Shown here: positions 3,214 through 38,755 of the stretch, piece after piece
Layout of the letters: each line of letters starts with the position of its first letter
How positions within the stretch are numbered: the first letter of the stretch is position 1
Assembly: GCA_964372025.1 (NCBI GenBank)
Contig: CAYJPF010000002.1
Span: 9,999-73,998, forward strand
Direction: 5' to 3'
Source of the DNA: an uncultured Peptococcaceae bacterium
GTDB taxonomy: Bacteria > Bacillota > Dehalobacteriia > UBA4068
DNA length: 64,000 nt
The notes under the pieces: generated by a model
The model's input: only the letters and a program-made list of their open reading frames with translations
Told to the model about the DNA's origin: nothing
Databases searched by the model: none
Program-made: the position numbers and the translations under genes

Positions 3214-3224
3214 ATTAAATAAAT

Positions 3225-12846: not shown

Positions 12847-15038
12847 TGAGTTGAAATAGTTTATCTATACGAGACCGCCATTCCTATATTAGGGATGGGG
12901 TCTCCAAAGGAATACATGATCTAAATGAGATTCAGAATTTATACAAAGAAGGAGGCAACTTAAAGAAATCCTATTCTTTAGATAATCTACACGAATTAGC
13001 AGTAGATAATCCTTCTAAATATAAAGAATATATGGGTAAATTACCTAAAGAATACCAAGTCAAAGTAATTGAAAATGCTAGTAGGGAAAGATACGGCTAT
13101 GAAGGATTAAATAGTTATATGATGGCAGCTACAGGAGGACTGCCTTCTGTAGCGGGCCAAGCTGCCGCTGAATTAATAGATTACAATGTAAATAAGGCTA
13201 CTAAAGGTAATAAGCAGTCTTGAGGAGAATTGTTTTATACTGGTAATAATCCTGTATTGTCTACTGTAGCTAGTATGACTAATCCAGGCAATATAATTGG
13301 AGGAATGGGCAGTGCTAGAGATATTACTAGTAGGGCTTTACCTAATAGTTCTAAAGTAAATATTGATTTAGAGAGGTTAGCTACTTCTGGTAAAAAACAT
13401 AGATTCGATAAAGAACTAAATAAAATCAGAGAATATGCACAAAAGCAAAAAGATAACAGTCCTTTAGTAGACATCAGTGGGCGAAAAAAGGAATTGAAAG
13501 ATAGTCAGACTTTAAAATCAATTAGAAAATTTGCTGCAGATAGATGGAAGACTCAAAAAGAATATGGCAGACATTATGCAGATCCACAATATCCGGCTGA
13601 AGAATTAAATGCTAATAGAGAATTTATATACAATAAATTAAATAGTGAGGATATTAATGATCCATTTGGCTATTCTCCTACGTTTTCTGATTATTCGCCT
13701 GAATTATTAGATAAGGCATATGCTATATATAATTACAGAAACCAATTAATGCGAGGTAAAGGGAATTTAAATATGGATAGTATCAGTGCTTCTGAGGCAC
13801 TGCAAATGGCTAGAGAAAATAAATTTCCAGTAAGAAGTTTTGAAAATACCTTGATCATGTCTGGTAAACATCGCACTCAAGAAAATGCCAGAAAATATAT
13901 AAACACTAAATTAGTTCCACAATTAGAGAAAGACTTAACGCAAATAGGGGTATCTCCAAGAGTTGCAGAAAACATTGCAATTATGGCGGGTCAATCTGAC
14001 AAAGTTCCAAACGTTGTTAGGGACAGTAAATATTGGAGATATACTATGACTAGTGATTTTTCTAAAGATTTTTTTGATTTGGATAACGAAAATATGGATT
14101 TCTGGAATAATCCCCCTACCGGAAAGGAAATACTATCATATAAACAACCTTATACATCAACTATTAAAAGGCATGATTCCTACCCAAATTTAAAAAAATA
14201 TGTCCTTTCTCAATCTAAAGACACTAATGTGGATAAGTTTTCAGAGTATCCTAGCCTACAAAAAATTTTACAACAATCTCCTGCATATATAGAAGATGCA
14301 AACATGCTGCTCTCTAAGTACAAAGATTTAGGTAGCGAGGATATAGAAAAGGACGTTTTATTAGATTTAATGGAACAGAGGCTTACTTTTGCTAGAGGAG
14401 TTAATATTGAATCTGGAGACGAGTATTTAGCTAGAAAAGCATTGAGCACAGTGCCTGATGAAACATATGGAGGAAGATCTGATCTTCCCAGGAATCTTGA
14501 AAAGGGACAAGATGCATTATATACTAGTAACTCTTTGCCTACCGCACTTTCATATTCTTATCCTACTCGTAAGGGAATCTCTAGAATAGGAATTTTAAAG
14601 CCATCACGAGAAAGTTTTAATCTCAATGGTCCTAGAGAAAATTGGTTTAAGGACAATTGGCCGAATATTGTTACAGCTTCATCTACCTCCTCAGGAAAAA
14701 ATATTAATTGAGATCAACTTCTGCCAAAAGAAATTCAAACAGGAGCCATTAATGAAGATCCTAAGTATTTGAATAAAGTGCGGTTGACAAACAGACTTTA
14801 TGATGACGATAGTGTAGTATCTCGCTTATCTTCTGTCAATCCCTTCAATCATTTTTTACATATAGGAGAGAGGAACAGTGTCCCTAACAATTTACAATTG
14901 GTAGAGTACCTTTCGCCTGCTGAACTGCCTAGGTTTAAGGAAGGAGTCACTAGAGCTCATGAAGGAGTGTACACTCCAGGGTTTTCTAAAGGATATCAAA
15001 ATGGAGGTAAATTAAAATTAAAAGAATATGGCTATTAA
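12846..15038 (+). CDS. late virion protein, 730 aa (TGA at 12852, 13221, 14709)
   Basis: Frame 0 from ATG 12846, which overlaps the upstream TAA as TAATG, through track ORFs 13032, 13230 and 14769 to TAA at 15036-15038. Confidence 0.7.
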
Positions 15039-16770
15039 AAATAAAAATATAGTACCAGCAGCATTAGGTGTAGCTACTTCAGCTACATCTAATTTGCTAG
15101 ATACAGGAGCAGACCCTTATAATATAAACTCAATAGGGCAATTTAATTCTAGGGAAGCACTCATAGGAGCTATGCAGGGGTGAGATCCCCAACAAGAAGT
15201 TTCTGTAGGAGGAACTGCCCTAAAAGGAGCTGCAGCTGGAGCGAGCGCAGGATCAGTAGCGGGACCTTTGGGAACATTGATAGGTGGAGTAGTGGGCGGA
15301 GCAAGCGGGTTCTTTGGAGGACAAGCTAAGAATAATTCCATTCGTCACCAAAATACTCAAATTCAAGATGCCTTCGCAGATCAAAACGACTATCTACGTT
15401 TAAAGCAGATCAATCAAACCATGGCTAATATCGCTAAGCATGGTGGTAAATTAAATACCCACGGAGGAACTTTTACATCAGATTTTACATCATTTAATAA
15501 CGGTGGGAGGCATGAGCAAAACCCCAATAGAGGTATTCCACAAGGAGTAGATCCACAAGGAATTCCTAATTTAGTAGAAGAGGGGGAGACTAAATGAGAT
15601 GATTATATATTCTCAGATAGCCTAAAAACTTCTCCAAAACTAAATAAACAGTTACATTTAAAAAATATAGATAATATGACTTTTGCTAAAGCTTCTAAAA
15701 AGATTACTAAAGAATCTGAGGAAAGACCTTTTGATAATATCAGTAAACGAGGCAAAGAGCGTATGCTAAATAGGTTAAAGGATGAACAAGAAGTTTTCCG
15801 CAAGCCTGTTAATAATATGTATAATGATGGAGGTCCTTTGGAGTTCTTTAAAAAATATATGGATACGCCGGATTTCTCGGGAGAAAGTAATCCATTAATT
15901 AATAAGATTCCGAGGTATAGTACAATGTGGAAAGGAGAAGATTCTGCAGATTTTACTTCAGAATACGCATTTAATGTTCCAAAGTTAAATTTAGACGTTA
16001 CGCAGACTCCGGAAATTACTTCTAGTAATTTAGATCAATATGATTTTATGCGTGGCAGAGATAGACTTCCTATAGTAGACACAGAGAATGTAAATATTAA
16101 TACACCTATTTTTCCTGATACCTCTATACAAAGTCGCTCTACTGCAGTAGTCCCCAATGTCTCTAAGACTTCCAACATAGATTGAGGAGAAGCGGCTATG
16201 TTCGCTCCCGCAATTACTAATTTAGGAAATGTTATAGCTGATATGACCAGTACTCCGGAAGTAGCAAGCTTTGGTAGAATGAATATTAGTGATTCTATTA
16301 AACGTAGGTATTTACCATATACTCCGGTTGATAGAGAATATTTAGCTAATAGATATAGAGCGCAGGCTGGGGCAGCTACGAGAGGAATTATAGATTCTTC
16401 TGGAGGAAATTCAGCAGCAGCTAGAGCATCACTAATTGCACAAAACTTCAATAGTCAAAATGCTTTGGGAGATATGTATAAACAATTAGATGACACTAAT
16501 AGAAATAGACTAATCCAATCTCTTACTTTCGATACTCAGCAAGATGCACAACGTGCACAACTCCTCGCACAAGAACAAGGATTTAACGCACAAATGGGTA
16601 TGCAAGAGTACGATATTAATGCTAGGAATAGAGCAGCTAAGCGCAATGCAGTTAGAGCGGGCATTAATACTGTAGGCAGAGATATTGGAGAAGTAGGAAA
16701 ATATATGAATAATACGGACATAGTAAATCTATTATATTCATATGATAAAAAAGGTAATTATAAAAAGTAA
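15028..16770 (+). CDS. late virion protein, 580 aa, with a Gly/Ala-rich N-terminal segment (TGA at 15181, 15595, 16183)
   Basis: Frame 1 from ATG 15028 through track ORFs 15268, 15676 and 16198 to TAA at 16768-16770. The gaps contain only TGA. Confidence 0.65.
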
Positions 16771-18437
16771 TGGCTGGTATAAGTGCTTATGATAAGATAG
16801 AGTATGGGGAGTTCAAGCTCCCCTCTCTTCAAGAAATGATGATTGTTCCTGAGTACCTTACTCAGCAGCATGAAATGACTAATGCTGAATTGATTAACAC
16901 TCAATTAGAAGCAGTTAATGTAGGATCATCATTGATACCAGGTATTGATGATGACCTTCTACAACAAACTAATGCTTTTCAACAAAACGTTGATAGCACA
17001 ATAGAAGAATTAGGAAGAACAGGTATTAATTCTACTATAAAAAGTAAGTTAATTGCTGCTAAAAAACAGTATAATACTAACATAGCTCCTATAGGGGTAG
17101 CTGCGCAATCCAGAGAAGCAGCTGCTGCAGAGATAGATGAAGCTCGTATTAAAAATCCAAATTTAATTGCTAAGGATCTTAGATCTATTAGATTATCAGA
17201 TTGAATTTCTAATCCATCTCTCCGTAATCCGGATATGATTGATCTTATGCAGGTGGAAGATAGTGCATATAAAGCTATGGAGCCTTTACAAAATTATGTT
17301 GCCTCCACTGCGCCCGAATTACTTTCAACAGGTCTTTTAGGTAAATATTTTACTAAGGTTCAACAAGGGGCTTCTGTTAATGATATTGCACAATCTATGA
17401 TTATGGATGGCGGGATGGCTCCAGAAAATGCTTCGGAGTTAAGTAAATTAATGCATCTAACTGCACAAAATTTATATGATCTTACTGGAGTAGCTTCTAA
17501 TTATGGTGCACAATCAGAGGCTTCTAACAGAGTATTAGGAATTATTCAAAATGCCTATAATTCAACTATAGGTTCTCCTACTTTTGGAACATTAACTGAC
17601 GAGTGGGCATTAGCAAAAGCGAGGAAAGGTCTAGAAGACTCTGGACAAGATACGCAACAAGGGTATCAATTTTTGACTACTTTGTCTGAACAACGTGATC
17701 CTAATGCTGCGCAAACTTACTCTGAATTATTAGCTCTTCATGCTGACCCAATGGGCACATTCACTACTACTCCCAATAATTCCCCCTCTACCTTTATAGC
17801 AACCGGCATGGGAGGAACTACTATTAAGAATCATGATGAATTAACAGCAAGGTTACGTAAATTAGGATGAGAGGTTACATCAGAGGACGTGCTTAATAAC
17901 ACTCCGTTAGTTCAGCAAGCGATGCAGCATGCACAAACTCAGCTTGCTCAGGCCTCCGAACAACAAGTAGAACTTAATCTTAATTATCCTGATTTTAAGA
18001 GTAATTTTAAAAATATGATAATGCCCAAGGCTTCTACAGGAATGATTAATATTTATAGTTCTACCGAAGATGCTAAAAACGGGACCTCTAAAATTAAGAA
18101 AAAGACCATTGAGGACTTGGCTAAATTAGAGTGATCCAATGATGTCACGGTAGATTTTCAAACTCACGACGGATTATTAGTAATTCGCACACCCGACTCT
18201 GATGATAAATTCTATATTAAACCTGAGGATATTAATACTACTTTAGTTAATACTATGCAAGAGTACAGAGCTCTGCGAGATATGTCGCAAAAAGATTTTT
18301 ACACACATTTAATAAGATTATCTCCTCAACAGGCTGCTTATCAAACAGCACTAAGAAATGATCCACAAGTTATAGGTAATATCATTTTTAATAACCTATC
18401 ATCGGAGAATCAAGGTACTCATTATAAATTAGAATAA
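16770..18437 (+). CDS. late virion protein, 555 aa (TGA at 17202, 17868, 18132)
   Basis: Frame 0 from ATG 16770 (TAATG overlap) through track ORFs 17235, 17889 and 18255 to TAA at 18435-18437. Confidence 0.7.
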
Positions 18438-21400
18438 TGGCAGAATACGATATAACAAAAATCAATGCTGCTCAGAATGAAGCAGATAAGCTTAATAGGG
18501 ATTCTGGATCTATCCAAGGCCTGAAAGGAATAAATACTGTTTCATCTAACGCATTAGATTACATTAGACAAGGACAAAAGGCTGCTCTCTTAGAGCAGTC
18601 TAGTCCGAACACAAGATTTACAGGTGAGAGATATGCGGAAGCTGTAGATTATAACTTTTCAAGATACGATGATTCTTCTGAGAATGTGGCAGATTTAACT
18701 GATATGAATGCAGTTAGGGCGGATGCTCAACCAGGTGTTCTAAAGGCAGGGTCCGCTATTATTGGAGGAGCATTGTCTGGATTAGCTACTGCAGTGGAAA
18801 CTACTGCATACACAACGGACTGGCTAACAGAATTTGCTAGAGCAGATGAAATAGACGAAAGTGTATTTTTACAACTAGCAGAAGCTATGCGCGAAAGTAA
18901 AGCTGCTATATCAAGAGAGATGCCAATATATGAGCGTCCTGGAGATAATGTAGCTGAACAAGTATTTAAATGGAATTCATTAAAAAGTATTATAGATTCA
19001 GCTATAGGATTTGCTATTCCCGGTGGAGCTATTAGTAAAGGCGCAGAAGCAGCCGCTTCTATGTTGGGGGCAGGCGCTAAGGCAGCCATTGCTTCTCAAA
19101 GAACCGCTTACATAATAGATAAGTTCATTACTCCATCCATAGGAGTAGGAGCATCTGCTCTTGCTACTAATTATGGCGAAGGAATGTCTATGGCTATGGC
19201 AGCTAGTGACGAAGTTTCTGAGGAGTATATTAATAATTATGCTGCTCAATATATACAAGCAGCTAAAGAAATGGGGCAACCTATTTCTTTACAAGATGCG
19301 AAAAAATTAGGTGCAGAAGTATTAGCCAATGATGAGAATGCTCAAATGCAATTGGAGTTACTTCAAGAAGACATTGTTAATAGAAATAAAATTATGGCAG
19401 TGTCTAACCTATTTGCTCTTAGAGGAATTATTAAAAATTCTAATTTTAGAAATTCATTATTAAAAAGCCCTACTGCTAAAAAAGCTTGGTTAGAGCAGTT
19501 TAATAAACTTAGCTCGGCTAATCCTATTCTTCAAGCTGCTACAGAAGGTCTTGAAGAAGGCACTCAGGCAGTCATGACTGAAGATGCTACTTTTGAGACT
19601 CGTAAGAAATTAGGATTTACATCTAATCTAGAGGAAGAGATTCCAGTAGATCTATGGGATAGGGTAGTAAAATATGCTGCTAGTAAAGATGTTTTGACAG
19701 AAGCTATCATAGGATTTGCATCAGGTCCTTTACAAAGTGCTGGCGCAAAATTAACCAGTAACGTTCTTTCAGGAGATCCTCTATCTAAGAAGTACGGAGA
19801 ACAATATGCGCAAGAGTATTCTACACAACAAGCTTGGGAAAGTCCTGTAGAAGAGGATGTGCGCAAGATAGCGCAAGGCATTATGTTGAAAGATTTGGCG
19901 GATGCTACTAATGATACTATAGCTTCTAATAAAATGCAGCGAGAGATGTTTGTGAATACTTACAAAAAAGCTGCTACCGAAGGACGTGCTCCATTATTCG
20001 TATCTCTAATGGAAGACGTTGAGCAAGCTACATCAGATCCCACCGAAAGAAATAGAATTAGTGATCTTCGTAAGTTAGCGGAAGCTGCTGAAAATAAGTT
20101 ATTATTTTCGATAGGAGACAAAGAAACAGGCGGACTACGGTTCGATAATGAGTTAGATAAACTTATTCATAGAGCAACTTTAGATGATATTCAAACTGCT
20201 CTCCAAGAAGTACCTTCTGAAATTAATGAGGAAATTAAAGACTCCGGAGAAACTGCATCATTAACTATTAATAAGGGCGAGGCTTTTTATGAAATTAAAC
20301 AGGGGGATAACACAAAGTCTCCAGATGTATCACCGGAGCTAAAAGCAAAGATAGTCGATTATACACAACGTTATGCTGATACTTATAGCGAGTTACAGGA
20401 AGCTAAGCAGGTAAGTAAAGACTTAAATAGTCCCACAAAGAGAAAGGCTATCAAAGAAGCTAAAAGACAAGCAGCCGCTAAAAAAGCTTATGAGGATTTT
20501 AAAAAATCTGCAGAACCTATGGTGGATGCAGACGTAACGTATTCAGACGCACCTGATAAAAAGGTTAAAGTTGTTAATGATGGGGGAGTCCTATATCTAA
20601 GAGAGTTTGACGAAGATTCTCAAGCATATATTACCCCACTGGTAACTAACTCTAAGGACGAAGAGTTACCCATGACCCAAGCCCAATTAGATAAGCTAAC
20701 CTTGACTCTTACTGCACCCCCTAGTTCTACTATACCTGTAGAAGAAGCAGCGGTATCAGAGGCAGTTACCCCTCCAATAGAACCTATTGCAGAACCTGTG
20801 ACTCCTTCTGCAGAGGCCTCTACACAAATTTTAGAGACCCCTTTGGAAAATCTCTATAGTGCTGTAGAGCAGGAACTAGGCAATACTCCGGTGGAGAGAA
20901 TAATTTCACAATTATCGGATAGAATAATCTTTGAATATAATTCATTATTAGAAACTAATCCTACTGAAGAGCAAATTAAGAATTTCTTTAACGCTATTGG
21001 AGGACAGTTGAATAATTTCCCAATGCTTCAGCAAGTACTCTCCCAATCAGACGATTTTCTTAATGTTTGGACTATTCTAAATACGAGTGCGGCAGAATTT
21101 AAGTCTTCAGGCACGTTACCTACAGTAAGTTTGCCTACAATTGCTAATGCTGCCCTTAGAGATAAATTAGAATCTATTAAAGAGGCATCTGCCACTACTA
21201 TAGCTGAGGAGGTCTCTAAGATTGATAGAGAGGAGTTAACTCCTGTAGAGGAGCAAGCTGTAGATGAAGCCATTCAACAAGCTGTTGAAACCATAGTGGA
21301 AGAAGCTGGGGATACTACTAATGAGACTGAGGAAACTGTAGATACTTTAACAGAGGCTATTTCTGAAGTAGATAGTACTACAGCAAAACAACTTATAGAC

Positions 21401-24400
21401 GGAGTTAATGATATAATAACTAAAGTTCCTTATACATTTACTACTCCGAAAGAAGTTAGGAATGAGTGGCAATTAATTTGGGATGCGGCTAATCAACTTC
21501 CCGTAATTCCTGAGAAGTCTATACAAGCATTATTAAACCAATTCGCTGATTTTTATAAAGGAATTATCGCTATGAATGAAGCTGATAGTTCTAAGGAAAA
21601 ATTAGTTACAGAGATTCGCGATTCTATATATGCATTAGTGGAAACTAAGAAAGGTAATTCTGCCCAACATATATCAGCAATAATGACGGAAGAGAATTAC
21701 CCGATGGAAATTGTATCAGCATTTTATAAAGAAACTTACGGCGAAAATACTTATAGAGGCACTAAAGGCAAGGCTCGAACAAATCCTACTATTGCATGGT
21801 ATGGCTCAAGAGGAGTAGAATATGATAGAAACGAGGTACGCATCACTGTCCCTAATTTAATAAGATGGTATGATTTCTTAAATTCCGGAGAGGCCCTTAA
21901 TTACAAAGGGGAGTTAAGTCCTATGATCTTTGAAGGAAAAACTGCCGTACGCATAGCTATCGTGGATGGAAATGGAAAATACCTTACTTCTGACGGTATT
22001 GTAGATACATTCTCTGAAGACACTTGTATTTGGTCTACTATGCCCGATATCACTAGTAATTCAGCTATAAAAGAAGATACTCAGGAGGTAGGTAAGGATT
22101 ATAAAGATAAAATCTGAGATCCTATAGCAGGCAAAGGAAATATTTTAACTGTGGAATTCTCAATGTTGACTGGAGGAGTACTTGATCTTAATAATAAATT
22201 TATTAATAACTCTGAGGTTCGTCCCCTAGGGGAAGCGTTCGCAGAAGGATCTACCATAATTGTTCCTCCCAATACGTCTTCTCCCAAAGAGTTTGATTTA
22301 AAGGTAGCCACACAAGATAATTTTGCGGCTGGAGAAGAAATACTAGCGGTGAAAAGGGGTCAATACATTCTATCTACTAAAGATAGACACTTTGTGGCAA
22401 ATACTGTTTTACCTAATGAGGATGACATTGACTTATTAGCACTAGCTTTGACTGACTTTTTAACAGGACGAGACACATTTAGAGACGCTGGTAATAAACT
22501 CACTTCTGCAGACGTACTAAAACATTTTATGCGTATTTTACCTATTGAATATACTACAGTAAAAGACGCTAAAAGAATAGCTGCTGTTAAAATATACATC
22601 AATGATGCTAGAAATCCAGTAGATAGATTTATTTCGATTAATAACGTAGATTATAGGGGAGACGCAGGAATAGAAGCTATTAAAGCCGCTTTGCCCACTA
22701 TGTATTATAATATACAAAGCCGATCTCTTAAAAGTACTAGTAAAATTGTTGTTCCAGAATTACACATAGATGGAGGGTTGGGTAACAAAACTTACAATAA
22801 TTTTAAAGAATTTGCTATAGATAAATTAGTAGGATTTAAAAATGCTAGCTTTGATGGAACTATTTCTAAAAATAAAAGATTAGTAGTAGATCCCAAATCA
22901 ATCCAATCCACGATAGTAAGCGAAGAAGCTGCAGAAGAAGTAGTAGAAACCGTTGATGAGTTAAACACTATGTTTTTTAAACGTAAATTAAACATTATTA
23001 ACGGCGTAGAAGATTTTGATAAAGCTAAAAAATGGTTTGAGAGTAAATTCCCAGGAATAGAGTATAGAGTTATCGCATCAGCAATGTCTTCTGGAGAATT
23101 CGGATCATTTGTGGATAATATAGTTACTGTATATGATAATGCAGAACGTGGTACAACGTATCACGAGGCGTTTCACGTAGTAATGAAGCATTATTTATCT
23201 CCCTCAGAAAGATTTAATCTACTTAATAAAGTTGCGGAATCTAAGGAATTCAAGGAAGTTAAAAAAGAATTATCTGCTATATATCCAGAATTAAAAGAAC
23301 AAGCACTTGTTGAGGAATATATTGCAAATCGATTCCAAGACTACATGCTTGAGCAAGAAGAATTGCCTAAGAAATCTTTATTTAAAAAGTTCTTTGACGG
23401 ATTAAAGAAATTCATAGAGAGTCTTAGAAATATATTATCTAAAAAATCTGGTAAACAAGATTTAGATAAATTATTTAAGCATATTAATTCAAATTCTTTT
23501 AAATTTATAAAATCAGCTTATCAGAATTATGATTATGTAGTATATAATAAAATAAAAAATCTTAATGCTGTTCAAACAAAAGACGCTTTAAATAGTATTC
23601 ATTTGTTTTTTATGAGTAATTTTAAACAGAATAGTAAAAGTTTCTTAGAGATATTGACAGCGGATAACGCGAAGCTAGTTGATGAAAGCTATGCTCACGC
23701 TAAAAACTTATTTATACGATACTCAAAGGCTTTTGAGAAGCAATTTAATGATTTAGCTGCCCAGTATCAACAAAATCCTTCCGAAGAAAATGATTTACGT
23801 ATGGGGGAGGCAGGAGATAAATGGTCTGTAATTGAATATGTTTTAGACACCTGGGATTCTCCCGATGGAATTGTGCAAAAACATAAGCAATATATTTTAC
23901 CTAGATATTCTTTATCCTCAGATACTATTCTTTTAGAGGAAGAGGTTGATGATGTAGATTCTGAAGACTCTCCAGGAGGAAAAGTAGTGGGAGATTATTT
24001 CCACGACTCACTTACTTATAGTGCTAAATTAAATGCAAATCGTTCGATCAAATTACTTCTTAGTGGACTACCTAAAAGAGTTGTAGGGCCGGGTAAACAA
24101 GTTCAGTTAGAGTTGAACTCACTCGGGCTGCCTCAACTAGAATCTTTTGGAACTATTTTTAATGCACTAGTCAATAAACTGGCTAATCTAACTGGAGATA
24201 TCAGTGCACAAGAATTATATGATAAACTAAATTCTATTGCTAAAGATTTTCCTACTATTATACCACTTATTCAAGATAGTGGAGATGGAGGAAGAGCGTG
24301 GTTAAATCTAAAAGAAGGAGAAAGTTGGTCTAAAGATGATACATTGTTGTTCACGCAATTTATGCAGTCTTTCACTAAGAATAGAAATGATTTCTATATT

Positions 24401-27400
24401 GCTAAGATGGGTAAAGGAAATGCTTCAACACAATTTAGTGCATCGAGGCATAGTAGTTATGGTAAACTTAGAACTAAGTGGGCACAAGCATTATCAGGCA
24501 AAATACTTAATGGAAATGCTACTATAAGTAAGTATTACATTAATAATGGAGGCAAAATTTCTTACAATAAAGAAGCATTTATTGCAAACTTTGCAACTGT
24601 GGCTAACGGGCGAATTGTATCTAACTTAGACTACGATAATCTATGAAGTGCTATGCGAGCGTTAGGAGTAGAAGAGGCGTATTTCCGAGAGAACCAAGAG
24701 GCACTGCATCGTAAAACTAATGCGATACTTGGACAAATTATGTCATCCTCATACTTTCCACCAATTCTAAGTGGGGACACAGAGACTCTAAATGTTTATT
24801 TTGATTCAGTCATAGATAATAAAATAGATTTTACTGAGAATAGTCATATTAATTTGGAGGACAAGATGATCTATGATGCAACATTACATAGTCATTTAAC
24901 AAAAACTATCTCGCAATTAATGCGGGTAACTACTCCTAATAGTGTAGAAGAGATATATGAAGTGATGCCCTGGCTTAATCCAGAGCACTGTGCTTACGTA
25001 ACTAATTCAAAGTGGTTAAAAGGTCTTCAAGAAGGCACTGTGACCAAGTTACATATGACTATATTGGAAGGTTCTAAAGAGACAGCTTCTGGAGTAGGCG
25101 TGCCATTTGATAAACTAAAGCCTGTTGATAAAGTAATCACTGTGCTTAATAGTATTCAATCTGGAATGTATCAATTAATGCGTCCTGCAGACAATGCTTC
25201 AGAAAGATTTATCAAAGTAGAAGGAGAGTTATTAGTACCTATTACTGCAGATAAGTCGGTGACTATATCTTTATTTAAGAATTATTTAATTGACGAATTA
25301 AATCGTACTCAAGAGGATAATACTGGGTATATTAATTTAGATAAAAATTCTAAAGAAGGATTTATTCTATCGGAATTATTAACCAAAGATCAACTATCAT
25401 ATTACGAAAATGAGTGGAAAAACTCGGGATCTCCACAAAATTTTGGGGAATGGGTAACATCTATGTACTCTGACGTTATTAGCAATAATATCTTGACATA
25501 TCTCAATAAACGAGTTAAAAGATTATTAAACTATCTTTCTGATAATAAAGTAATTTTTATATCAGGAGACCAAGTAGCTATTCGCGGATTACGTACTCCT
25601 AAAGCTACAATGGCTATGGGAGATTTTACTAGATGGTTGTTTAATACTGAGGCAAATTGAATGGCTGGGTTTATAGAGCAATCTAAATTATTCTTTGGTG
25701 ATCCAGCATATTATAAATCTCTTGCAGACGAGTTTAAACGACACTCTGGTGCAGTTGGTCCTAAAAAATATGCTAATACTTCTATTGAAGCTAATGTTGC
25801 TATACAAAAGCATTATAAGCGATTATTAGATGGAGCAGGCAATCTCATGGATAAAATCACGGGAACTAAACCTATTTATCGAACTGCTATATTTAACGAT
25901 GTTATGACTTACTCACAACAAATTGTATATATAGCGGATACTCTAGATAAAGATAATGCAGCCTACCAAAAAGCTAAAGCAAATAAAACTGACGACGCTT
26001 TGATAGAATGGATTATTTCTAATGCTAAGAAAGAAGGTTTAAAAAGTGCTGCGTACTTAGACATGACTGAAGGAGACGGATTCGGATATATATCCCTAGA
26101 TGCATATCGTGATTTAAAAGTTCGAGTAGGAGATTGGTCTGATGACGCTGAGAAACTATATCAATGGGAAGTATATGAATATAATAATACTCCTAAAAAG
26201 GACCGTACATACACAAATTCTTCGGGAGTAACAACATCGTTAAGATACGGAGATTGGGGAAAACAGGTATTTCATTCACTAAAGCCTCAATACTTTGGCC
26301 CTATGGCAGAGGTAGGATTTAGAACTACCATGTATAAAACTTCTTTGATGCCCTTATTGCCAAGTGTTATAAAGGGGAGAAACTTAGAGGCATTACATAA
26401 ACACATGGTGGATAATCAAGTAAGTATACTTACTCACTACTCTGCTAATAAAGGCGTTACTACTAAAACTAAGAATATAGACGGAGTTAATACTACTAAC
26501 TCATTCTATGATGTGCAAGGAAACTTTGGTATTCAAAATGGGTATTACTTGGGGGATCCTGGAGAATTCTTAACGCAGGATACTTATGTAGAAAACTGGG
26601 GTATTCAGGTAGACACAGGTGAGAAATCACACACTGATGTTATTACTGGTACTCAGATGATGGTGCATATTCTTAATGGCTTATTTGATGGAGGATCTAT
26701 TGCAGACGATGTTACTAAATCTCCTGAGGAAAAAGCATATATTCAAGATAGAGTAGATGAATATTTTGCTCTAAATAATGAACGCATTTCTTTAGGAGTA
26801 GAGAGGCTGAAGGATATATTAGGAGTAGATATAACAGGTTCTGAATATTCGTTCTCAAGAGAGGGAGTGGAGAAATTATTGGATATGCTCACTAATGACG
26901 CTATTACTCAAGACATGCCTGATAATTATTTTGAGGCGATTAATATTTTGAAAAAGCAGTCTCCAGAGAATGTTAAGTTAGACTTGCTTCCTAATAAAGA
27001 GGCTTTTGAAAGTACTTTATTGAGCATTGCTTCTAAGAATACTATCAAACAAAAGCGTAAAGGATTTGCAGCGCTTCAAGTAGCTGCTACTATGTGGGAA
27101 TCCGGTAGTCGTAAGAAGATAGGTGGGATGTTAGCAGGATCAGATCTTAAATTTGTAGTATCAACTTCTAAAGAGGGAGTTAGAACTTCTTCTATGGAAG
27201 TATATATACCAGATATTTATAAAGGCAAAATTAAGATAGGTGATGCAATAGACTCAAGATTACTCCAACTGATAGGATTTCGTATTCCTACACAGGGTTT
27301 ATCTTCTATTGATTCTATTATTGTTAAAGACTTCCTTCCTAAAGAAGCCGGTGATATTATAGTTCTTCCGACAGAAATTGTGGCAAAAGCAGGTTCTGAC

Positions 27401-29680
27401 TTCGATGCGGATAAAATGTATTTATATACTCCAAATTGGTTCTTCGATAAAGATGGTAATGTGGCTTATGTAGATTATGCTAATTGAGAAACACAATTTG
27501 AACAATTGTTATCTACAGATAGTAAAATTACTAGGGAAGAGTTTAAACAAATGGCTATTGAGAATAGGCTAGCTGAGATTCAGCAAGATTTAATTACTTT
27601 ACCGGGCAATACTTCAAATCTTATTGCTCCAGTGTCTTCAGATGTACTTGAGGACGCTGCTACAAAAGCAATGATAGCAGTGCATGGCGAAGATAATTAT
27701 GAGTCTTCTGCTGAATATTACAAGTCCAAATCACCGTTCTCAGCTATGACTGATCTTATTTATACTTCGGAAGTATCTGAAAATTATATGGCAGGTAAAG
27801 CTGAAGTAGGTATTACAGCATCTCAAGGTAAAATGGGAGTATACTGCTCTATCTTTGATTTAGGAGTAGTGTTATCGGAGAATGTCCCATCAAGAATAGC
27901 AGGAGTTCCCCAGGAGTCTTTGCCATTTAAAATAAATTTAGATGGAACTACTATTAAATTGGGTAATAAGTGAGATAATAGGGATAAGTATCCTATTGCT
28001 GAGATTATGAATCAGCTGATTACTATGGCGGTAGACGCTGCTAAGAGTCCTTTTGGTACTAACTTAGGAGCAGATCCTTCTACAGTAGGCATTCATACTA
28101 TGATGGCAATGGCAGGCGGAGATATGGAGCAACTAGCGTTATTTATGAATCAACCTATTATTAGGGAGTATCGTAAATTACAACAATTGCACGAGTCTCA
28201 AATGGCTCAAGAAAATTTTAGTTCCCCATTTGATCAACAGGCTGCTAATAAAGAGACTCGTTTGACTAAAGAGGGAATCGTTAAAAAATTAATGATTAAA
28301 TATGGTGCCAGCGAGAGTGGAGGTAAATTATCTGCGCCTATCACATTAAATCTAACTAATGAAAAACTATTAGACGGATTTAGCAAAGACGCTAAAGAGG
28401 CAATTAAGTATCAACCATTTATTCTGGATACATTCCTCAGATTATTAGACTACTCTAAAATTTTAGGAAAAGCTACTCAAGGAGCTACTTGGGATACGAA
28501 AGGAGGTGGCAAAACTTTATCAGAGACGCAAATTAAGCTACTTACTACTCAAGAGATTCTTGATAGTGGCGTGGTGACTAATTATGGTAAATTAGTAAAT
28601 TCTGGATACATTGCTCCATATAAAGAGGCTGCTGCAACTACGTTTAATATTTATAAAAATTTATTTGTAACATCTTCAGATGAATTACTTTCTGACTATA
28701 TTCTTAAATACGTTATGAGAAGACCTGGATCTACAGGAGACACTGTTAAACGTATGAATAAGTTAAAGAATGCAATATTAACTGCATTAGCATTAAACAC
28801 AGCTAATTCTAACGAAGTATATTTACGAGATAGACAAGAAGAATTGATGTTCGGGATCAATAATATCCCTACTTGGATTATGTCATTGAGGAATGATCCT
28901 AAATATTCAGGGAATGCATTGCTGTCACAATTAGTTCCAATACTATCTACAGGAGGAGAGTCTGATTTTAATTCTTTGAAGTTATTTGCAGACAAGGATA
29001 CTTTATCACAAAATGCTATTACGGAAGCATGGAGAGAACTACAAGTTATTTTTGGTAATAATAAAATGGATGATTTAATGGCGTTTGCCTTACTTCAATC
29101 GGGATTATCTCCTTCCCCACTAAATTTCTCAAAAATAATTCCTGCGGATAGATATTATAATATGCTTATGCCACTTATTCAGGGTGGTATAAATTCTGGT
29201 GTACATGCGGATATCCTTTATAATAATTTCGAGGTGGCAGTAGAATTAGCTTATTATAATGACCCTTTGTTTACGTCTAATCGTAAGTCTCCTATTACTA
29301 GCCTAAAGAAAGTATTTAATAAGGAGACGGGCCTCAATAATATTGTATATATGCCTCCTAAGGCGGATAATAAGCAGCCTGCTAATATATTTATTGATGC
29401 GGTGACTCATATAGATTATGCAAGAAATAAATCTTATGCATACTTTAATTATGCTCCTGGTAGTAAATTAATTGCTGCTCTAAATAAGTATAAGGAAGCC
29501 TTTGTTGAGGAAGTAAAAAGTACTCCTACGCAGGATGGCTCTACAAACAGTTCTTCTGTAGACCAAACTTCTTCTGAATTAACAGCAATTATTCAGGCGG
29601 ATCAAGTTACTTCTGAGGAGAAGGTGGAAAATAACGCACTAAATCCAGATAGCTCTATAGCTGAACAAAAATGTAAATAA
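18437..29680 (+). CDS. giant virion protein, 3747 aa; candidate virion-packaged RNA polymerase (two-barrel type)
   Basis: Six track ORFs (18437, 22151, 24653, 25661, 27506, 28007) are all in frame 2 and separated only by TGA, at 22115, 24644, 25658, 27485 and 27971. The stop is TAA at 29678-29680. It contains SDFDADKM (27398-27418), which resembles the universal beta-prime NADFDGDQM catalytic motif. There is an HEAFH zincin-like motif, and a Pro/Glu/Thr-rich linker near 20.7-20.8 kb. Confidence 0.65.
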
Positions 29681-29681
29681 T

Positions 29682-32600
29682 ATGAAATGTCCAAATGTAA
29701 AATCTACAGAGTGGAAAACTTTAGTAGATAGATTTGGAGAAAGCATTGCATGGTCGTTGTACGACGTGGTTGGGGATGTCCCCAACCTCCGTACAGCGTT
29801 ATCCATAGTAAAAGACAATGGTATCTCCTACTCTACATTATCTACAGAAAAATTACAATCATTGGGCGTGATTGATTCTTTAGGTAATATTAAAGTATTC
29901 ACTAATAAAACAAGTGTAGATAATAAAGTTGAAGAATTACGCAACTCAAATCGTAGACTACGGGTAGTGGCTAAGAAATTATCTTCTAAGGATAATTCAT
30001 ATACTATTGATGTAGCAGAGATTAAAACATCTCAAGAGATATTTAAAGCTACTCCCAAAATTAAAACTCCTACTAAATCTTCTACTATTTTAAATAGTGA
30101 AGATGCTGTAAAAGAGTTAGAAAAAACTATTGTAAAATGGTTAGATAATGTTGGAGTTAGTTATGAGAAAGTCTCTGAAATTAAAGATGCTTCTGGAAAT
30201 CCTATAAATGCCCTGGGAATAGCAGATATGCTTCAGAAAGTTATCAGGGTAGTGGAAGGTAAGGCTACAGTAGAGACGCTGTCAGAAGAGGCTGCACACA
30301 TGTTTGTGAGGATGCTGCCTAAGAATCACCCATTATATCAAAGAATGGCTAATTTAGCTGTTAATAGTGCTACTTATCAGTCTGTAAAGGATGAGTACTC
30401 TTCTATGTACGATTCTGAAGAAGCATTTGTTGAGGAGACTATAGGTAAGCTTATTGCCCAAGAGATTAGTAATGTTTGAGATAGTAACTCATCTAAATAT
30501 ATAGAGGAAACTTCTGAAGTCAAAGGGGGGGTAGCCAACCTATTTAATAGATTAGCTACTTGGTTTAATAATCTCTTGAATAAATTAGGATTATCTTCTG
30601 AGAAATTGCAAGAGCAAACTTCTCCATTTATAATGGCTGCAGATCAAATCTTATCCACTCAGACTACTGGATTAGATACTCTTAGGCAAGATGGGCAAAC
30701 TGTATTTTATAGTATGCCTCAAGATGCATTTGCCAACCGAGAGGAAATATTGGATTATCTAAATACTGTTCCTATCACATATGACTCTACTGGACAAGTA
30801 TATAGACATAATAATGGCAATGTAGTATCTAGGCGTGTCTCAGATATTCTTGATAGATTTTATAAAATTAAATTTAAATTCTTTAAAGAACGCCCTACTT
30901 CTCAGAAGAACACTTTATCTCTACATAAAGGATCTGCGATACATAAATACGCAGAGCTTATTATGAATGAGCTATTAGATGGAAATGATTCTCCGTCATA
31001 TAGTGCGATTACTTCTAAAGTATTAGTAGCATTTGATGATATAGAAGCAGGTGCAGAATCAGTGTTTAGATTAGATCCCCAACATTTTGAAATAATTGCT
31101 AACGGAGTTAAAAATATCTTTGCCGCTATTCAAAAGAATCAAGATCTTATTAATGAACAAACAGGCAATGTAGATGGAACTGTGTCTATAATGACTGAGC
31201 ACATGATTTATGATGAAAAGAGGGATTTGGCAGGAACAGTAGATGTATTGTGTGTATACTCCAATGGAACCATTGGTATATATGATTATAAGACTCATAA
31301 TTTTGTAACCAATGAGCAGGGAGAAGTACTAAGTACTATCTCACAGTCAAAAAGAGATATGTGGGGGGCACAAATTACTCAATATAAGAATATTATTACA
31401 GATTCCATTGTTAGAAATTCTAAAGCTAAAGGTAAAGTTGTTAAAGTTAGATTTGCAGAAACGCGTATGTTGCCTGTAAACATTCAATTTAACCCGTCTT
31501 TATTGAGGATAAAAGGTATGCCCTATAGTCCTGTAGGATTGGCATCATTAGAATTCCAAGATTACTCTAAAAGCTATCTTATGGATGTACCTGTAGCTGA
31601 AGAGCTTTCACACGTAGATTCTCTTAATAATAGTTTAATTAAACTATATAGTCTATTAAAAGCTCAGAAGAAAAAGTACTCACAAGAAAAAACTATAGCT
31701 AATAAAAATAAGCTTCTCCAAACTCAAAAACTCATTGATACTTATTTAGTACAAAAGGATTACTATTATTCTATAATGGAAATTAAGAATATCGACACTG
31801 AATTTCGAAAGAATGTACTTATTCATAGGGATAGTGGGGTAGGACTAACTGCGGAGAAATTAAATGATTATCGCACTCGCGTAGAAACATTGCTAGACTT
31901 TATGACTGCAATTGATACTACCATTCCTGAGGATTCTCCTGTACGCAAAGATATCCATGAAGCCGTAGGTTTGGGAGCTAGTCTTATAAACTCTATAAGT
32001 GAGAGCGCTGTGGATTTACTCAGAGAAATTACTGGCGTTGACATATCAGTAAGTGGAGAAAAGATGGGCTTTGTAGATAATGAGCTTACTGCTTTATTTG
32101 AGCAAAAAGGCCAATCTTTTAGAGCATTAAATAATTTAATCTCCGGAGTGATTAATAATACCCAAGCTGACTATAAAGAGTTTGGGGAGCAATTAACTAA
32201 ATATCACAATGAGTTATTAGAATGAGCCAAATCTAAAAATATTAATCTTCAAGATGCTTTTAATAAAATTATAGACACTTCTAGAGGATCGCTAATCAAT
32301 AGATTTAATAAAGATTTTTACGATCATCTTGCTACCATTCGAGGTAAGAAAAACTACGAGGCTGATCCGCAATTATTAAAATTATTCCAATTGACTATTA
32401 ATGCTGACACAGGATTTTATGAATATACAGATGACGCTTTAATAGACTACAATGATGCTGTTGCTAAATGGGAGAAGCAGCTAACTGATTCTACAGGAAC
32501 CCGTTTGGAGGAAGAGACTCGCACCGCTTATAAGTTATGGGATCTAGAGAATAATCCTAAATGGGCTTCAGCTCGTCTTTCTCCTAAGAATAAGTTTATG

Positions 32601-34763
32601 AGAGACAAGTATATTAGGGACGATGCTGTGATAGAGGCAGGATGAATGAATCCTGTGTATAAAGAGATTATTTCTGAGAAACCACTATTAAATTATTACA
32701 ATTTTTATGTGCGTTTTAACAGAATGGCAGAGTTACTAACGGGTTCTTCCATCTCATATAAATTTATTCCTAATATGCGCAAGACTCTTGTGGAAGGATT
32801 GCTCAACAATGGTGTGTCTGCATTTGGCAAAATGAGGTCTTTCACATTAGAAGCACTAGAGACTACTGCACAAGATGATGTGGTTTATAAGTTGAGTGAT
32901 GAGGAACAAGCACTAGATGCCCAAAATAAGCCTATTAAGAAGATTCCTGTGCATTTCGTAGACCCATTGAAAGATAGGCTCACTAAGGCAGAAGAAGAGG
33001 AAATTAAGGCCTCTATTACGGCAGAGCCTGGCAGTGCTGAATATAACGCAATATTTAATGCTAAAAAATTAGACTTAGCTAAACGTAAATTTAATGAGGA
33101 CTCTAAGTCGTACGATCTTAGTTATTTGTTAATGAAGATGGCAGAATCTGTGTACTCTTATAAACATACTAAGCAAGTAGAAGCTGCAGCACAGTTATTA
33201 TTAGCCACTGCTAAGACTGATAAAGTTAGTACTACCTTGGAGAAGAATAAAAATCCTTATATTGATGAATGGCGAGGAAGATTAAAATTCCATCTTGGAA
33301 TATCTTCAGAAGAGATTAGTGCTTTAGAAAGATCTATCAATCTCTATATCTATAAACAGCGCATTCAGAACGATACTACTTTTACAATAGGCGGCAAAGA
33401 ATATTCTACTGCTAAAGCAGTCACATCATTTATTAATTCTGCTACTATTGCTACATTAGGATTTTCCCCAATAACTGCGGCGGCAGCAGGTATTCAAAAT
33501 GCTATAAATGCTAGATTATTGGCTGTAGAGGGAAGGTACTATGATAAACAAGCTTGGAAGAAGGGCAATAAACTAAAGAAGCAAAATCCTAAAGTTTATC
33601 ATGCTTTACAAGAGTTATTAGGAGTGTCTAACATTGGATATTATCACGAAACTAGTATGCAATTTGCTGCCAATAAGATGAAAAAAATTATTTCAGGTGA
33701 TACCACTATGACTATGGTTAAAGGAGCGGATGATAGTGCGGATAGAGCCACTTTAGCAGCATTGGTACATTCTTGGGGATGAGATTCTTCAACAAATAAA
33801 ATAGTTAGTTTGCAAAAAAATCCTTCTGCTACTCCAATAGTAGACTTAATCTCTATAGATTCTAATGGAAAGCCCGTGTTAGAGGGCGTTACTCAGAAGG
33901 AGTTAAGTAGATTTAAACAGATTGTAGCCAAAGTAGGAATGGCGGTTAAAGGTACTATTCCTTCGGAATATGCTTATTTAGGAACTACTACTATAGCTGG
34001 TAGAGGATTAGCCCATTATAAATCGTGGATTCCAGGAGCTGTTAAAACTAGGTATAAAAAATTAGCGTATGACGCAGTTACAGAAGAATTTGATGACGGT
34101 AGATTACGAGTAATGTTCTCAGACTTAGTAGGAAGCACTGAGTATATGATTAAAGGATTCAGAAACGCAATTATACGGTCTTTGCCTATAATTGGTTATG
34201 TGTTCAGTGATAAACTAGGCACTAATGAAAAATACGCTCGTAAATTATATGAAGAGTATTTTGCAATGCGCCCTGATTTAAATGAAGCAGATTTTACTTT
34301 TGAGCAATTTATTGACATGCGTCTTAAAAAGTTAAAAGCTGCGGGTACTGAGATTCAATCTACTATATTATTCTTTCTAATAGCCCTAATGCTTAAAGCA
34401 ATGGCACCAGACGAAGATGAAGATGCTGTAGCAATTTTAGCTCATCAAAATCTATATAGATTACTGTATAAGAGCTATGTGGAGTTATCTTTCTTCACTA
34501 ATCCTCTTAGTATTAGTGAAATCTTAGAATCTCCCTTTCCCGCTATTAGTACTCTCAATAATATAATTCGAGCTATGAATAATACTTTAGATGAAAGTAG
34601 GGACATAGTGTTTGGAGAAGATTACAAAGGTAGTTTAATATGGGAGGAAGACAAAGACGATACCTCTCCTATAGGTAAATATTCTACAAAACTTATTCCT
34701 GGAGTAAACGCTGCTCTCGGTGTATTGGATGTATATGATACATTCTCTTATAATAATAGATAG
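29682..34763 (+). CDS. giant late protein, 1693 aa, with an internal RecB/Cas4-like PD-(D/E)XK nuclease domain
   Basis: Track ORFs 29682, 30576, 32391, 32646 and 33810 are all in frame 0 and joined across TGA at 30477, 32223, 32643 and 33780. The stop is TAG at 34761-34763. Nuclease motifs: GSAIHKYAE, MIYDEKRDLAGTVDVLCVY, IYDYKTH and GAQITQYKNI (QxxxY). Confidence 0.65.
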
Positions 34764-36724: not shown

Positions 36725-38755
36725 TTAATGTACCCAATGGTCACTAATATTAGCCGACGCATCAAGGGGCACATGTCTGCAAAAAACCTTTCCTGAATTT
36801 CTCATACACTCGATTATTTTGTCTGCTACAACTTGCGCTAAGTGTTCGGGACATTCAACGTTTATTTCATCGTGCACCGGTACAGTATACTTAACAATAA
36901 ATTGTAGAGAATTATCTAATATTCATTTATAGAATGCAATTGAAGCCCTTTTAAAACATACTGCACCTCTCCCTTGTATCCTATAATTAATAGATTGCTT
37001 TTCTAATTCGGAGCGACGTTTAAAATACTGTTTGGCTACTTGTATTTCGTAAGTATATTCCTCGGCTGCTTTAGCTGCCTTATACTTATCCCAAAATCCA
37101 GGGGTATTCATTGTTCGTTTATAATTTTGTAATTCCTCAAAATCATACACAAAGGTTTTATGTCCATATTCTGGGCTATGCTCAATATAACCAAGTTCCA
37201 TTACTTCTTTTCTGCACTGTTTTTGGTAATTAGCCACCCCTTTAAATTTATTTAAATAACTATTGTAAGTCTCTTTAGCTTTGATAGGGTCATAGCCATA
37301 GGTTGTGACCAAAGTCATATCATTGCCGCCATAATTAAATAAAAATTCTGGACCCTTAGCCGCATTACGAAGATGTGGATAAAGTTTTTTAATATCCTTG
37401 ACCTCCACTGATTCTAATTCATCTGGATAAATAGCTTTTGCTACTAGGGAGTGCATATCCCCTGATCCATGTAAAAATTCCTCAATCATTTCGGAGTCAT
37501 TTGCCACATTTGCTATCAAAACAGACTCTTGTCCACAATAATCTACTGATACCCAAGAATTCCCTCCTTCGGAAATGAAGCAGCTCCTAGTTGCGGCATC
37601 GCTTGGGATATTCTGAAGATTGGGAATGGAATATCCCGTATCTTTATCTTTGCCTCCACCACTAGATAGTCTGCTTGTATCCATTAGCTGTGTAAAATTA
37701 GTGTGAATACGTCTAGACACAGGATTGATCGCATCTATAAAGTTTTGGCCATAAGTATTACAAACTTTTTCCCACTTTTTGTAAGTAAGGTACAAAGGAG
37801 CTACTGGAGATAACTCTTTTTGTGGCTTAATAACCTTAGCATCAACAGACTTTTTAAGTTGCTTAGTCTTTTTATCTAGAACGGATAAATTAAAACCAAG
37901 ATATTCAAATAAAGGTATAACTTGTTTAGAGCTTCCCCAATTAATTAAACATTCTGCTTCTTTAATATGAGTATCAAATAAAGACTGTTGAACGCACTTA
38001 TTTACAAACTTACTCTCACTTGAAAGCTCCGAAATAACCCAATTATTCAAGGCTTTCTCTGCATTAGTAAATTCTAAATAGTCCTCGAACATCTTAGCCT
38101 TTCACTTATTTACATCGAGTTTTACTCCACAATATTCAATATATGCCAACACTGCTACAAACTTATTCTCTAAACACACCGCATTAAAAAGCCGTTTCTT
38201 CATTACTTCTTTATGCTGTGCATGCATAATAGGAACCAAGTATTTAACATCTTCACAAGCATACACTAAGCCTTGAGTAGTTATTCCGCCAGTTTTAAAT
38301 TGTTCTCGAATACTCTTATTCAATTTAATTTTTAGATATTGCATACATATAGCATCTAAACTCAGCTTTTTAAGTCCTGGAGGGTATCCCAAATACAGCA
38401 GTTTTTCAACTAAATAGGTATCCCATACATACTTAACTGTAATTTTATGATGTAATAACCATTTCAAATCAAATTTAGCATTTTGCAATACCCATGTATA
38501 TCTGTCGTCTTCTAAGAATGGTTTAAGAAGATTAATATCTATGGTAGAGTCTAATACATATTGATTATATTCATCCCCAAATTGAATTAATAATAATCTT
38601 TTTGTGTATGGATCCAATCCACTTGTCTCAGTGTCTAAGCCAATATACTCATGATTAGCAAAATAAGTAAACATGTCTTGTAATGTACATCTAGTGGAAA
38701 TAGTATTATCTTCTTCAATAAGTAATTGCGGACAATTGGATATATAGTATCTCAT
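36725..38755 (-). CDS. polA: family A DNA polymerase (3'-5' exo + polymerase domains), ~676 aa, read through two in-frame TGA codons
   Basis: Exo I IGLDTETSGL, Exo II QNAKFDLKWL and Exo III YACEDVKYL, then TGA (38102-38104). Next come motif A VSVDYCGQESVL, motif B LRNAAKGPEFLFNYGG and IQGRGAV, then TGA (36923-36925). Motif C VPVHDEINVE follows, and the C-terminus …NLVDHWVH ends at TAA 36725-36727. The second TGA aligns with the Trp of E. coli Pol I …AVDAWLQ. Confidence 0.85.

Follow-up and report, generated by a model that had tools for sequence, protein, structure and literature searches.

A giant crAss-like phage gene read through five TGA codons very probably specifies a virion RNA polymerase polyprotein

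Results

The giant gene and its reading frame

The window analysed in this work, a stretch of 64 kb taken from contig CAYJPF010000002.1 of an assembly attributed to an uncultured Peptococcaceae bacterium, carries at 18437..29680 on the + strand a giant gene of 3747 codons followed by TAA, which very probably encodes the virion RNA polymerase polyprotein of a crAss-like phage, made as a single chain of 3747 residues through the decoding of UGA as tryptophan. The predicted product joins an N-terminal module like gp47 of the phage crAss001 to a polymerase module like gp66 of the phage phi14:2 and gp50 of crAss001 (all coordinates given for this gene and its parts are on the + strand). The start codon is ATG 18437, which shares a base with the upstream TAA (TAATG), and it is supported by alignments that begin at residue 1 with the homologue L002_2113 and at residue 6 with gp054 of the phage cr108_1; the frame closes at the TAA at 29678-29680. 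Between these limits there are exactly five in-frame stop codons, all of them TGA (22115, 24644, 25658, 27485 and 27971), which bears out the proposal of the initial annotation that an 11.2-kb gene is read through five TGA codons to give a protein of 3747 amino acids (aa).

Under translation table 11 the region breaks up into six open reading frames (ORFs) of 1226, 831, 335, 608, 155 and 557 aa, all of which lie in the same frame, and the chance that five consecutive standard-code ORFs fall in one frame is about (1/3)^5, or about 0.004. Relatives show what stands at the interrupting codons. The first TGA (codon 1227, 22115..22117) is read as Trp, the residue found in both cr108_1 and the contig L002, and the fourth (codon 3017, 27485..27487) is also read as Trp, with W in cr108_1, L002 and the homologues P0009 and P0014. 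Close relatives have Y at the third (codon 2408, 25658..25660), which is crossed by the phmmer alignment of query residues 2305-2438 with gp66 residues 763-911, and at the fifth (codon 3179, 27971..27973), which has the trigger-loop equivalent just downstream of it; the second (codon 2070, 24644..24646) occupies a variable position within a continuous alignment to uninterrupted homologues. Six uninterrupted, standard-code homologues of 3700-4300 aa (P0004, P0009, P0014, P0015, P0016 and P0019) each give one BLASTP alignment that runs from about residue 1525 to residue 3580, and these single alignments cross four of the five TGA sites.

A wider tally was made by aligning four late genes (those of cargo protein 1, cargo protein 2, the giant protein and a 1693-aa protein) to their orthologues in cr108_1 and L002. 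The residues opposite TGA in these relatives (n=24) comprise 11 W, 8 Y, 1 F and 4 others. Decoding of TGA as selenocysteine or as Gly (code 25) was considered and set aside, since the aligned residues are W or Y. The comparison with relatives indicates that UGA is decoded as tryptophan in this phage genome, and that the giant gene is translated as a single chain of 3747 residues. The predicted enzyme has its metal site, bridge helix and trigger loop in three different standard-code ORFs, so that an active enzyme would require read-through of the TGA codons at both 27485 and 27971.

The polymerase module and its predicted active site

The polymerase module (aa 1802-3747, 23840..29677) is colinear with phi14:2 gp66. 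When the whole protein was compared with the PDB using phmmer, the only sequence match was 6VR4_A, the DNA-dependent RNA polymerase gp66 of phi14:2 (E=3.8e-22), and the block that contains the catalytic motif matches this solved RNA polymerase with E=1e-18 to 1e-22. The matching stretches are colinear over about 1500 residues, and pair query residues 1802-1988, 2305-2438, 2720-3003 and 3180-3266 with gp66 residues 184-357, 763-911, 1110-1390 and 1606-1694, respectively. PDB sequence searches that used the 842-aa piece or the C-terminal 568 aa as queries gave no significant match. Pfam searches with the six standard-code pieces returned nothing above threshold, and PHROGs searches with the same pieces returned only phrog_16227, described as a “virion structural protein”, at the motif region.

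The metal-binding motif DFDAD (D2988, D2990 and D2992; 27398..27412) is the sole D.D.D match in the translated protein, and forms part of the longer string SDFDADKM, which spans 27395-27418. GSDFDADKMY aligns with GSDFDIDKMY of gp66, whose catalytic motif is 1361-DFDID-1365 (10.1101/2020.03.07.982082), and the Asp triads are in register, with D2988, D2990 and D2992 opposite D1361, D1363 and D1365. Further landmarks were transferred from gp66 by means of a five-sequence alignment. The Connector (gp66 1095-1238) falls on aa 2714-2879 (26576-27073), between the first and second barrels of a two-barrel catalytic core at 25661..27484, and the gp66-family arrangement of two double-psi beta-barrels and a Connector within one chain is found here. 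The bridge-helix equivalent is placed at aa 3106-3129 (27752..27823, from gp66 1529-1559) and the trigger-loop equivalent, with an invariant VDxxKxP block, at aa 3186-3224 (27992..28108, from gp66 1598-1636); both of these placements rest on sequence alignment only.

Conservation of the core was evaluated in 77 sequences drawn from IMG/VR and from phage records, with residue numbers obtained by adding 2408 to the position in the aligned segment. The residues invariant in all 77 are D2547, K2616, K2634, K2672, Q2740, G2876, R2949, P2951, G2986, S2987, D2988, D2990, D2992 and K2993. The three lysines (26282..26452) correspond to gp66 K1012, K1027 and K1065, which lie just N-terminal of the Connector, and because these gp66 equivalents adjoin its upstream side, the lysines can be placed in the first, beta-like barrel region. 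The initial annotation had read the protein as a candidate polymerase of the two-barrel type with a beta-prime-like catalytic motif, and had suggested that the reading be checked by looking for a double-psi beta-barrel fold around DFDADKM and for the K/R motifs of the second barrel. The reading is upheld by the match to 6VR4 and by the register of the catalytic Asp triad; the motif region matches the gp66 crystal structure, and the lysines K2616, K2634 and K2672 are present and invariant.

Intron occupancy of the catalytic motif in relatives

In the closest relatives of the giant gene the codons of the DFDxD motif are split. This is the case in cr108_1, in the ENA contigs L002 and L003, and in the IMG/VR loci L007, L009 and L013, the last of which is one contig with L006. 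The split motif of cr108_1 contains a detectable group I intron (Rfam RF00028, 80 bits, about 300 nt, positions 15791-16087 of L001), as does that of L002 (51.5 bits, 12421-12679), and an ORF for a LAGLIDADG homing endonuclease follows the motif interruption in L002 (12599-13315) and in L003 (6377-7093); in L007, L009 and L013 the loss of the intact motif is all that was observed. The junction in cr108_1, gat/taatatc...attattg/tat, places the intron between the codon for the first Asp and the Phe/Tyr codon. The window gene (gac ttc gat gcg gat) carries an intron-less allele of the motif, as do L008 and L010. LAGLIDADG introns in the transcription block of crAss phages have been depicted by Yutin et al. 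(PMC7886860).

Distribution of the family and prevalence of the fused form

An exhaustive HMMER search with the 608-aa core against 1.84 billion cluster representatives yielded 3339 homologues at E≤1e-3 and 273 at E≤1e-30. The top 150 homologues have a median length of 4056 aa and carry the catalytic motif at a median position of 3107, and in most of 80 IMG/VR loci the pattern GSD[FY]DxDK lies 3000-3700 codons into one standard-code ORF of 3900-5000 codons. The unfused form, in which the motif lies at about residue 1370-1490, is that of phi14:2 and the crAss001-like phages, and in some representatives of 5200-6100 aa (the fusion was seen in P0011, P0028, P0052 and P0062) a gp49-like module is fused in addition to the C-terminus of the polymerase. 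Polymerase matches were found by tblastn in 131 phage records, which are mostly from uncultured or crAss-type phages and from phages of Bacteroides, Flavobacterium and Cellulophaga.

The giant protein is a double fusion, of a well-known kind, and the fused form is the commonest in the family; polyprotein fusions and the zincin-like domain that accompanies them have already been described (10.1101/2020.03.07.982082). The initial annotation was correct about the giant size of the protein, 3747 codons, which it set against ordinary structural proteins; the one correction to make is that for this family both the size and the fusion are those of the commonest form. The identity of the giant protein to anything in the searched collections is at most about 55%.

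The N-terminal module and its zincin-like domain

The N-terminal module (aa 1 to about 1700) corresponds, as judged by profile comparison, to crAss001 gp47; most of it is predicted to consist of helices or linker-like sequence, and its C-terminal end is a zincin-like domain of the form HExxH...E. A profile built from three sequences of aa 1-1800 matches residues 63-213 and 2069-2229 of a 2310-aa “RNA-polymerase subunit” of Kehishuvirus, which has the size of crAss001 gp47. The match to the C-terminal HExxH region of this gp47 homologue has E=5e-15, and the string TTYHEAFH is identical in the two proteins. Homology between the N-terminal module and phi14:2 gp67 was detected neither by phmmer nor by the three-sequence profile.

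The first part of the module (aa 1 to about 1520, 18437..22996) evolves rapidly, and successive sub-regions of the N-terminal 1500 or so residues are common to only 17, 5, 2 and 0 of 151 representatives. It includes a linker rich in P/E/T/A (aa ~755-800, 20699..20836), of which 65-67% is P/E/T/S/A. No transmembrane segments were found in the giant protein at a Kyte-Doolittle value >1.4 over 19 residues.

The zincin-like metallopeptidase domain, of the gluzincin type, occupies 22997..23368, with HEAFH at 23162-23176 (starting at residue 1576) and Glu1627 at 23315-23317. A word-index protein search with a 189-aa query from the HExxH region gave no matches, and the family emerged from the exhaustive HMMER search with the core: of the 151 top representative homologues, 111 have the HExxH domain, with the motif itself in most of these, and the distance to DFDxD downstream is always about 1370-1470 residues. 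When 18 sequences are aligned, H1576, E1577 and the downstream E1627, which lies in the block “EExLAEEF”, are invariant, while H1580 is kept in 15 sequences and replaced by Glu in the other three. The predicted fold of the domain appears to resemble those of the endopeptidases PPEP-2, PPEP-3 and lethal factor, and that of ArdC, which is co-transferred with DNA. HEAFH, the Pro/Glu/Thr linker and DFDADKM lie where the initial annotation had placed them (from 23162, at 20699-20836 and from 27398), and its zincin-like reading of HEAFH is supported by conservation and by this resemblance in predicted fold.

Residues 201-206 of the 1693-aa ORF (30282-30299) belong to a weak paralogue of the zincin-like domain in which the first His is replaced (SEEAAH as against HExxH), and this may be a degenerate, inactive copy. 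In phi14:2, the counterpart of the 1693-aa protein, gp65, has HEIMH at residue 245, and its match to the domain profile is not significant.

Comparison with known systems

The nearest annotated genome is that of cr108_1 (Crassvirales; Steigviridae; Asinivirinae; Pipoluvirus rarus), which has the same gene order, and whose gp054 and gp053 show the same fused architecture and about 39-52% identity to the giant protein. The cr108_1 gene has a group I intron and no in-frame TGA, whereas the window gene has no intron at that site and five TGA codons. The fused polyproteins known from metagenomes (PHROG 16227; 3400-6100 aa) have the same module order, with HExxH about 1400 aa before DFDxD and the catalytic motif about 3000 aa into the protein, but they are mostly encoded in the standard code and some of them also include a fused gp49-like protein, whereas the window protein ends after the polymerase.

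Identity to phi14:2 gp66 (PDB 6VR4) is about 21-25%. In phi14:2, which uses the standard code, gp66 is a stand-alone protein of 2180 aa and the sole HExxH among gp65-gp67 is that of gp65, encoded by the downstream gene; in the window, which uses TGA as Trp, another module of about 1700 aa precedes the polymerase in the fused chain, and the HExxH lies upstream in this same chain. The modules represented by gp47, gp50 and gp49 in crAss001 and Kehishuvirus are all shared with the window: the 2412-aa “putative RNA polymerase” of Kehishuvirus matches the window core, and its 1349-aa subunit, which has the size of crAss001 gp49, matches the 1693-aa neighbour of the giant gene. In Kehishuvirus these are three separate genes, with the gp47 homologue on the opposite strand, while in the window the gp47-like module and the polymerase form one ORF and all of the genes are co-directional. 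Cargo proteins 1 and 2 are encoded immediately upstream in the window, and likewise in crAss001 (PMC10172136).

Similarity at the sequence level was not detectable between the window protein and P23-45 gp96 (a tape-measure-fused polymerase), the N4 virion RNA polymerase, or QDE-1/RDR2. The fold of the N4 enzyme, a T7-like single-subunit polymerase, is unrelated.

Genome context

The giant gene lies within a block of virion and cargo genes, all on the + strand, in which crassvirus Pfam families were detected well above their cut-offs and in the canonical order upstream of the giant gene. Pfam matches identify tail ring protein 3/4 (2470-3213, Ring_3_4), the auxiliary capsid protein (3225-4244, crAss_AuxCP), ring protein 2 (5290-5967, Ring_2), ring protein 1 (6468-7187, CrAss_Ring_1) and the 1885-aa muzzle protein (7189-12846, crAss_MUZ with MUZ_C), and, directly before the giant gene, cargo protein 1 (15028..16770, 580 aa, 3 TGA; crAss_CARG1, E=2.6e-47) and cargo protein 2 (16770..18437, 555 aa, 3 TGA; crAss_CARGO2, E=8.3e-36). 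Between the muzzle protein and cargo protein 1 is an ORF of 730 aa with 3 TGA codons (12846-15038), which has no Pfam match and no counterpart among the compared proteins of cr108_1 or phi14:2. Downstream, at 29682..34763, lies the third polymerase-associated protein, of 1693 aa with 4 TGA codons, a homologue of crAss001 gp49 that jackhmmer links to Kehishuvirus WEU69769 (4.6e-101 and 3.3e-96). The same virion and cargo block has been described for crAss001 (PMC10172136). The initial annotation had described the flanking proteins of 555, 580, 730 and 1693 aa as consistent with ejected cargo: the sizes are right, the 580-aa and 555-aa proteins are cargo proteins 1 and 2 and the 1693-aa protein is polymerase-associated, but the 730-aa protein has no such match.

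Judged by these gene families, the window is from a crassvirus (order Crassvirales); it is nearest to Steigviridae/Pipoluvirus. Megablast of positions 18000-30000 against GenBank phages gave no DNA-level match, so it has no close DNA relative in that collection.

Several other genes in the window were observed alongside these. At the start of the virion gene block (383-1241, + strand) an HNH/NUMOD4 homing-endonuclease ORF at 383-1099 is followed by a group I intron at 1030-1241 (Rfam RF00028, 53.9 bits), and a gene like RNase_H_2 or a PolB exonuclease, with a Cys-rich C-terminal region, is found between the auxiliary capsid protein and ring protein 2 (4370-5290, + strand). On the − strand, the large subunit of ribonucleotide reductase (39491-42793, 1100 aa) contains an intein, at about aa 335-579, in which an HNH endonuclease is embedded (Pfam Intein_splicing, Hint and HNH_3), and adjoining genes at 44402-47321 encode an Amidoligase_2-domain protein (490 aa) and a protein like class-II glutamine amidotransferases (491 aa), a pair that could act in nucleotide or DNA modification.

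Recoding beyond the giant gene

The muzzle gene contains nine in-frame TGA codons, the most of any ORF in the window, and would be read as at least four ORFs under the standard code. Three of its standard-code fragments match successive positions of the crAss_MUZ profile (134-275, 489-685 and 911-1223). The PolA gene on the − strand (36725-38755) contains two in-frame TGA codons, both of which are aligned to W in the PolA of cr108_1. TGA accounts for 37 of the 122 Trp-type codons in the + strand block and for 16 of 127 in the − strand block. Further ORFs on the − strand merge once TGA is treated as a sense codon.

Recoding of UGA to Trp has been described for crAss-like phages, where it occurs mostly in late genes and often together with phage suppressor tRNAs (PMC7886860). 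Because the PolA codons align to Trp, the recoding in the present genome appears to extend beyond the late virion strand and to reach the replication module, unlike the usual crAss-like pattern of late genes only.

Discussion

The sequence comparisons indicate that the C-terminal module of the giant protein is a single-chain, two-barrel DNA-dependent RNA polymerase like gp66 and gp50. The role assigned to the whole protein follows from what has been established for its homologues. gp66 is packaged in the virion, transcribes early genes and carries out rifampicin-resistant, DNA-dependent RNA synthesis (10.1101/2020.03.07.982082), and the presence of the phi14:2 homologues in virions is recorded, from mass spectrometry, in the annotations of their records; in crAss001, gp45, gp46, gp47, gp49 and gp50 have been found in virions by mass spectrometry (PMC10172136). 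By homology, and given the position of its gene within the crassvirus cargo block, the giant protein is probably packaged and active, and by analogy with phi14:2 and crAss001 it is probably ejected and specific for early genes.

On the model of these two phages, the giant protein would be synthesized late and packed into the cargo zone of the capsid with cargo proteins 1 and 2 and its 1693-aa partner. It would then be extruded through the tail in a partially unfolded state, either before the DNA or together with it, and would refold in the host, where it would transcribe the early genes independently of the host polymerase and in a rifampicin-resistant manner. The active site would combine the invariant lysines of the first barrel with the DFDAD triad of the second, predicted to bind Mg2+, and with the bridge helix and trigger loop.

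Some observations weigh against this assignment. The AlphaFold model reaches only medium confidence, with weak strands near residues 529-549 of the core segment, and the fourth residue of the metal-binding motif (27407-27409) is Ala, whereas the 104 representatives with an intact motif have I (76), V (24), F (3) or D (1) at this position and none has Ala. The N-terminal 1500 or so residues have no match in Pfam or, with the 1226-aa search included, in the PDB, and no assignable function. ARAGORN found no tRNA genes, and hence no suppressor tRNA, in the 64-kb window, although about 40 kb of the source contig of about 104 kb lies outside it. The support for virion packaging and activity, finally, comes from relatives.

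The alternatives differ widely in how well they fare against this evidence. The most credible is a refinement of the assignment rather than a competitor to it, in which the full-length chain is a precursor that the zincin-like domain would cut, either in cis or in trans, at assembly or after ejection, thereby freeing an active polymerase of about 2000 aa, the size of gp66. The HExxH...E residues are kept in most of the fused homologues, about 1400 aa upstream of the catalytic motif and at the module boundary; the predicted fold of the domain appears similar to that of PPEP-2, PPEP-3, lethal factor and ArdC; and the same modules are encoded by separate genes in phi14:2 and crAss001. Drobysheva et al. 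(10.1101/2020.03.07.982082) have proposed cleavage of such polyproteins and two possible roles for the zincin domain, activation of the polymerase or digestion of peptidoglycan. We regard this refinement as a real but tentative option, somewhat less probable than its opposite.

A stronger version seems unlikely. The fused form would be an obligate self-processing precursor, in which a cut by the zincin, or the removal of a segment that blocks the polymerase cleft, takes place after ejection and confines transcription to the inside of the host, and the recoded UGA codons that separate the metal site, bridge helix and trigger loop would block production of the full-length active enzyme until a tRNA that decodes UGA becomes available. 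Since the DNA polymerase is also recoded, a capacity to decode UGA would be needed earlier than the “late genes only” model assumes.

A very different possibility is that the giant protein serves mainly as structural or ejection cargo, comparable to an ejectosome or a tape-measure protein, and that its polymerase core is an inactive relic in which DFDAD is no longer catalytic. It could draw on the Ala at the fourth position of the motif, on the “virion structural protein” label that is all that PHROG 16227 offers, on the nearly 1600 residues of gp66 itself that have no known fold or function, and on the tape-measure protein that is fused to a two-barrel polymerase in P23-45. The family, however, shows natural variation at the fourth position (I, V, F, D or N, with I, V or N in about 75 IMG/VR relatives), which is not a metal ligand, while the residues that are invariant in the 77 relatives, among them the three Asp, K2993, R2949 and the three lysines, have all been kept, as has the VDxxKxP block of the trigger loop, and the ORF is intact across 11.2 kb. 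We therefore consider a catalytically dead relic to be highly improbable.

Just as hard to sustain is the view that TGA is a true stop codon and that the six standard-code ORFs are separate genes for a split multi-subunit polymerase: for each of them an ATG, GTG or TTG no more than 40 nt from the TGA before it could serve as a start (an ATG directly follows the TGA at 25658), the 608-aa piece is a protein in one public gene call (P0001), and crAss001-type phages divide the function among three proteins, but the pieces share a common frame, uninterrupted homologues of 3700-4300 aa align in one segment across four of the TGA sites, close relatives have W or Y at four of the five, splitting would sever the metal site, bridge helix and trigger loop from one another, and the same TGA pattern breaks the muzzle protein and PolA at positions that are not domain boundaries.

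The assignment of the giant gene to a virion RNA polymerase polyprotein gives a function to the largest gene of this phage, which annotation in the standard code would present as six “hypothetical proteins”, hiding a complete virion RNA polymerase. Earlier publications already cover the enzyme family, the polyprotein fusion, the zincin-like domain, the cargo context and the recoding, and the current understanding of them is unchanged. What the gene adds to the field is a divergent sequence in which the DFDAD motif is unusual, an allele without an intron at a site that is filled by a homing group I intron in close relatives, and a clear case in which UGA-to-Trp read-through would be needed in order to join the catalytic elements of the enzyme.

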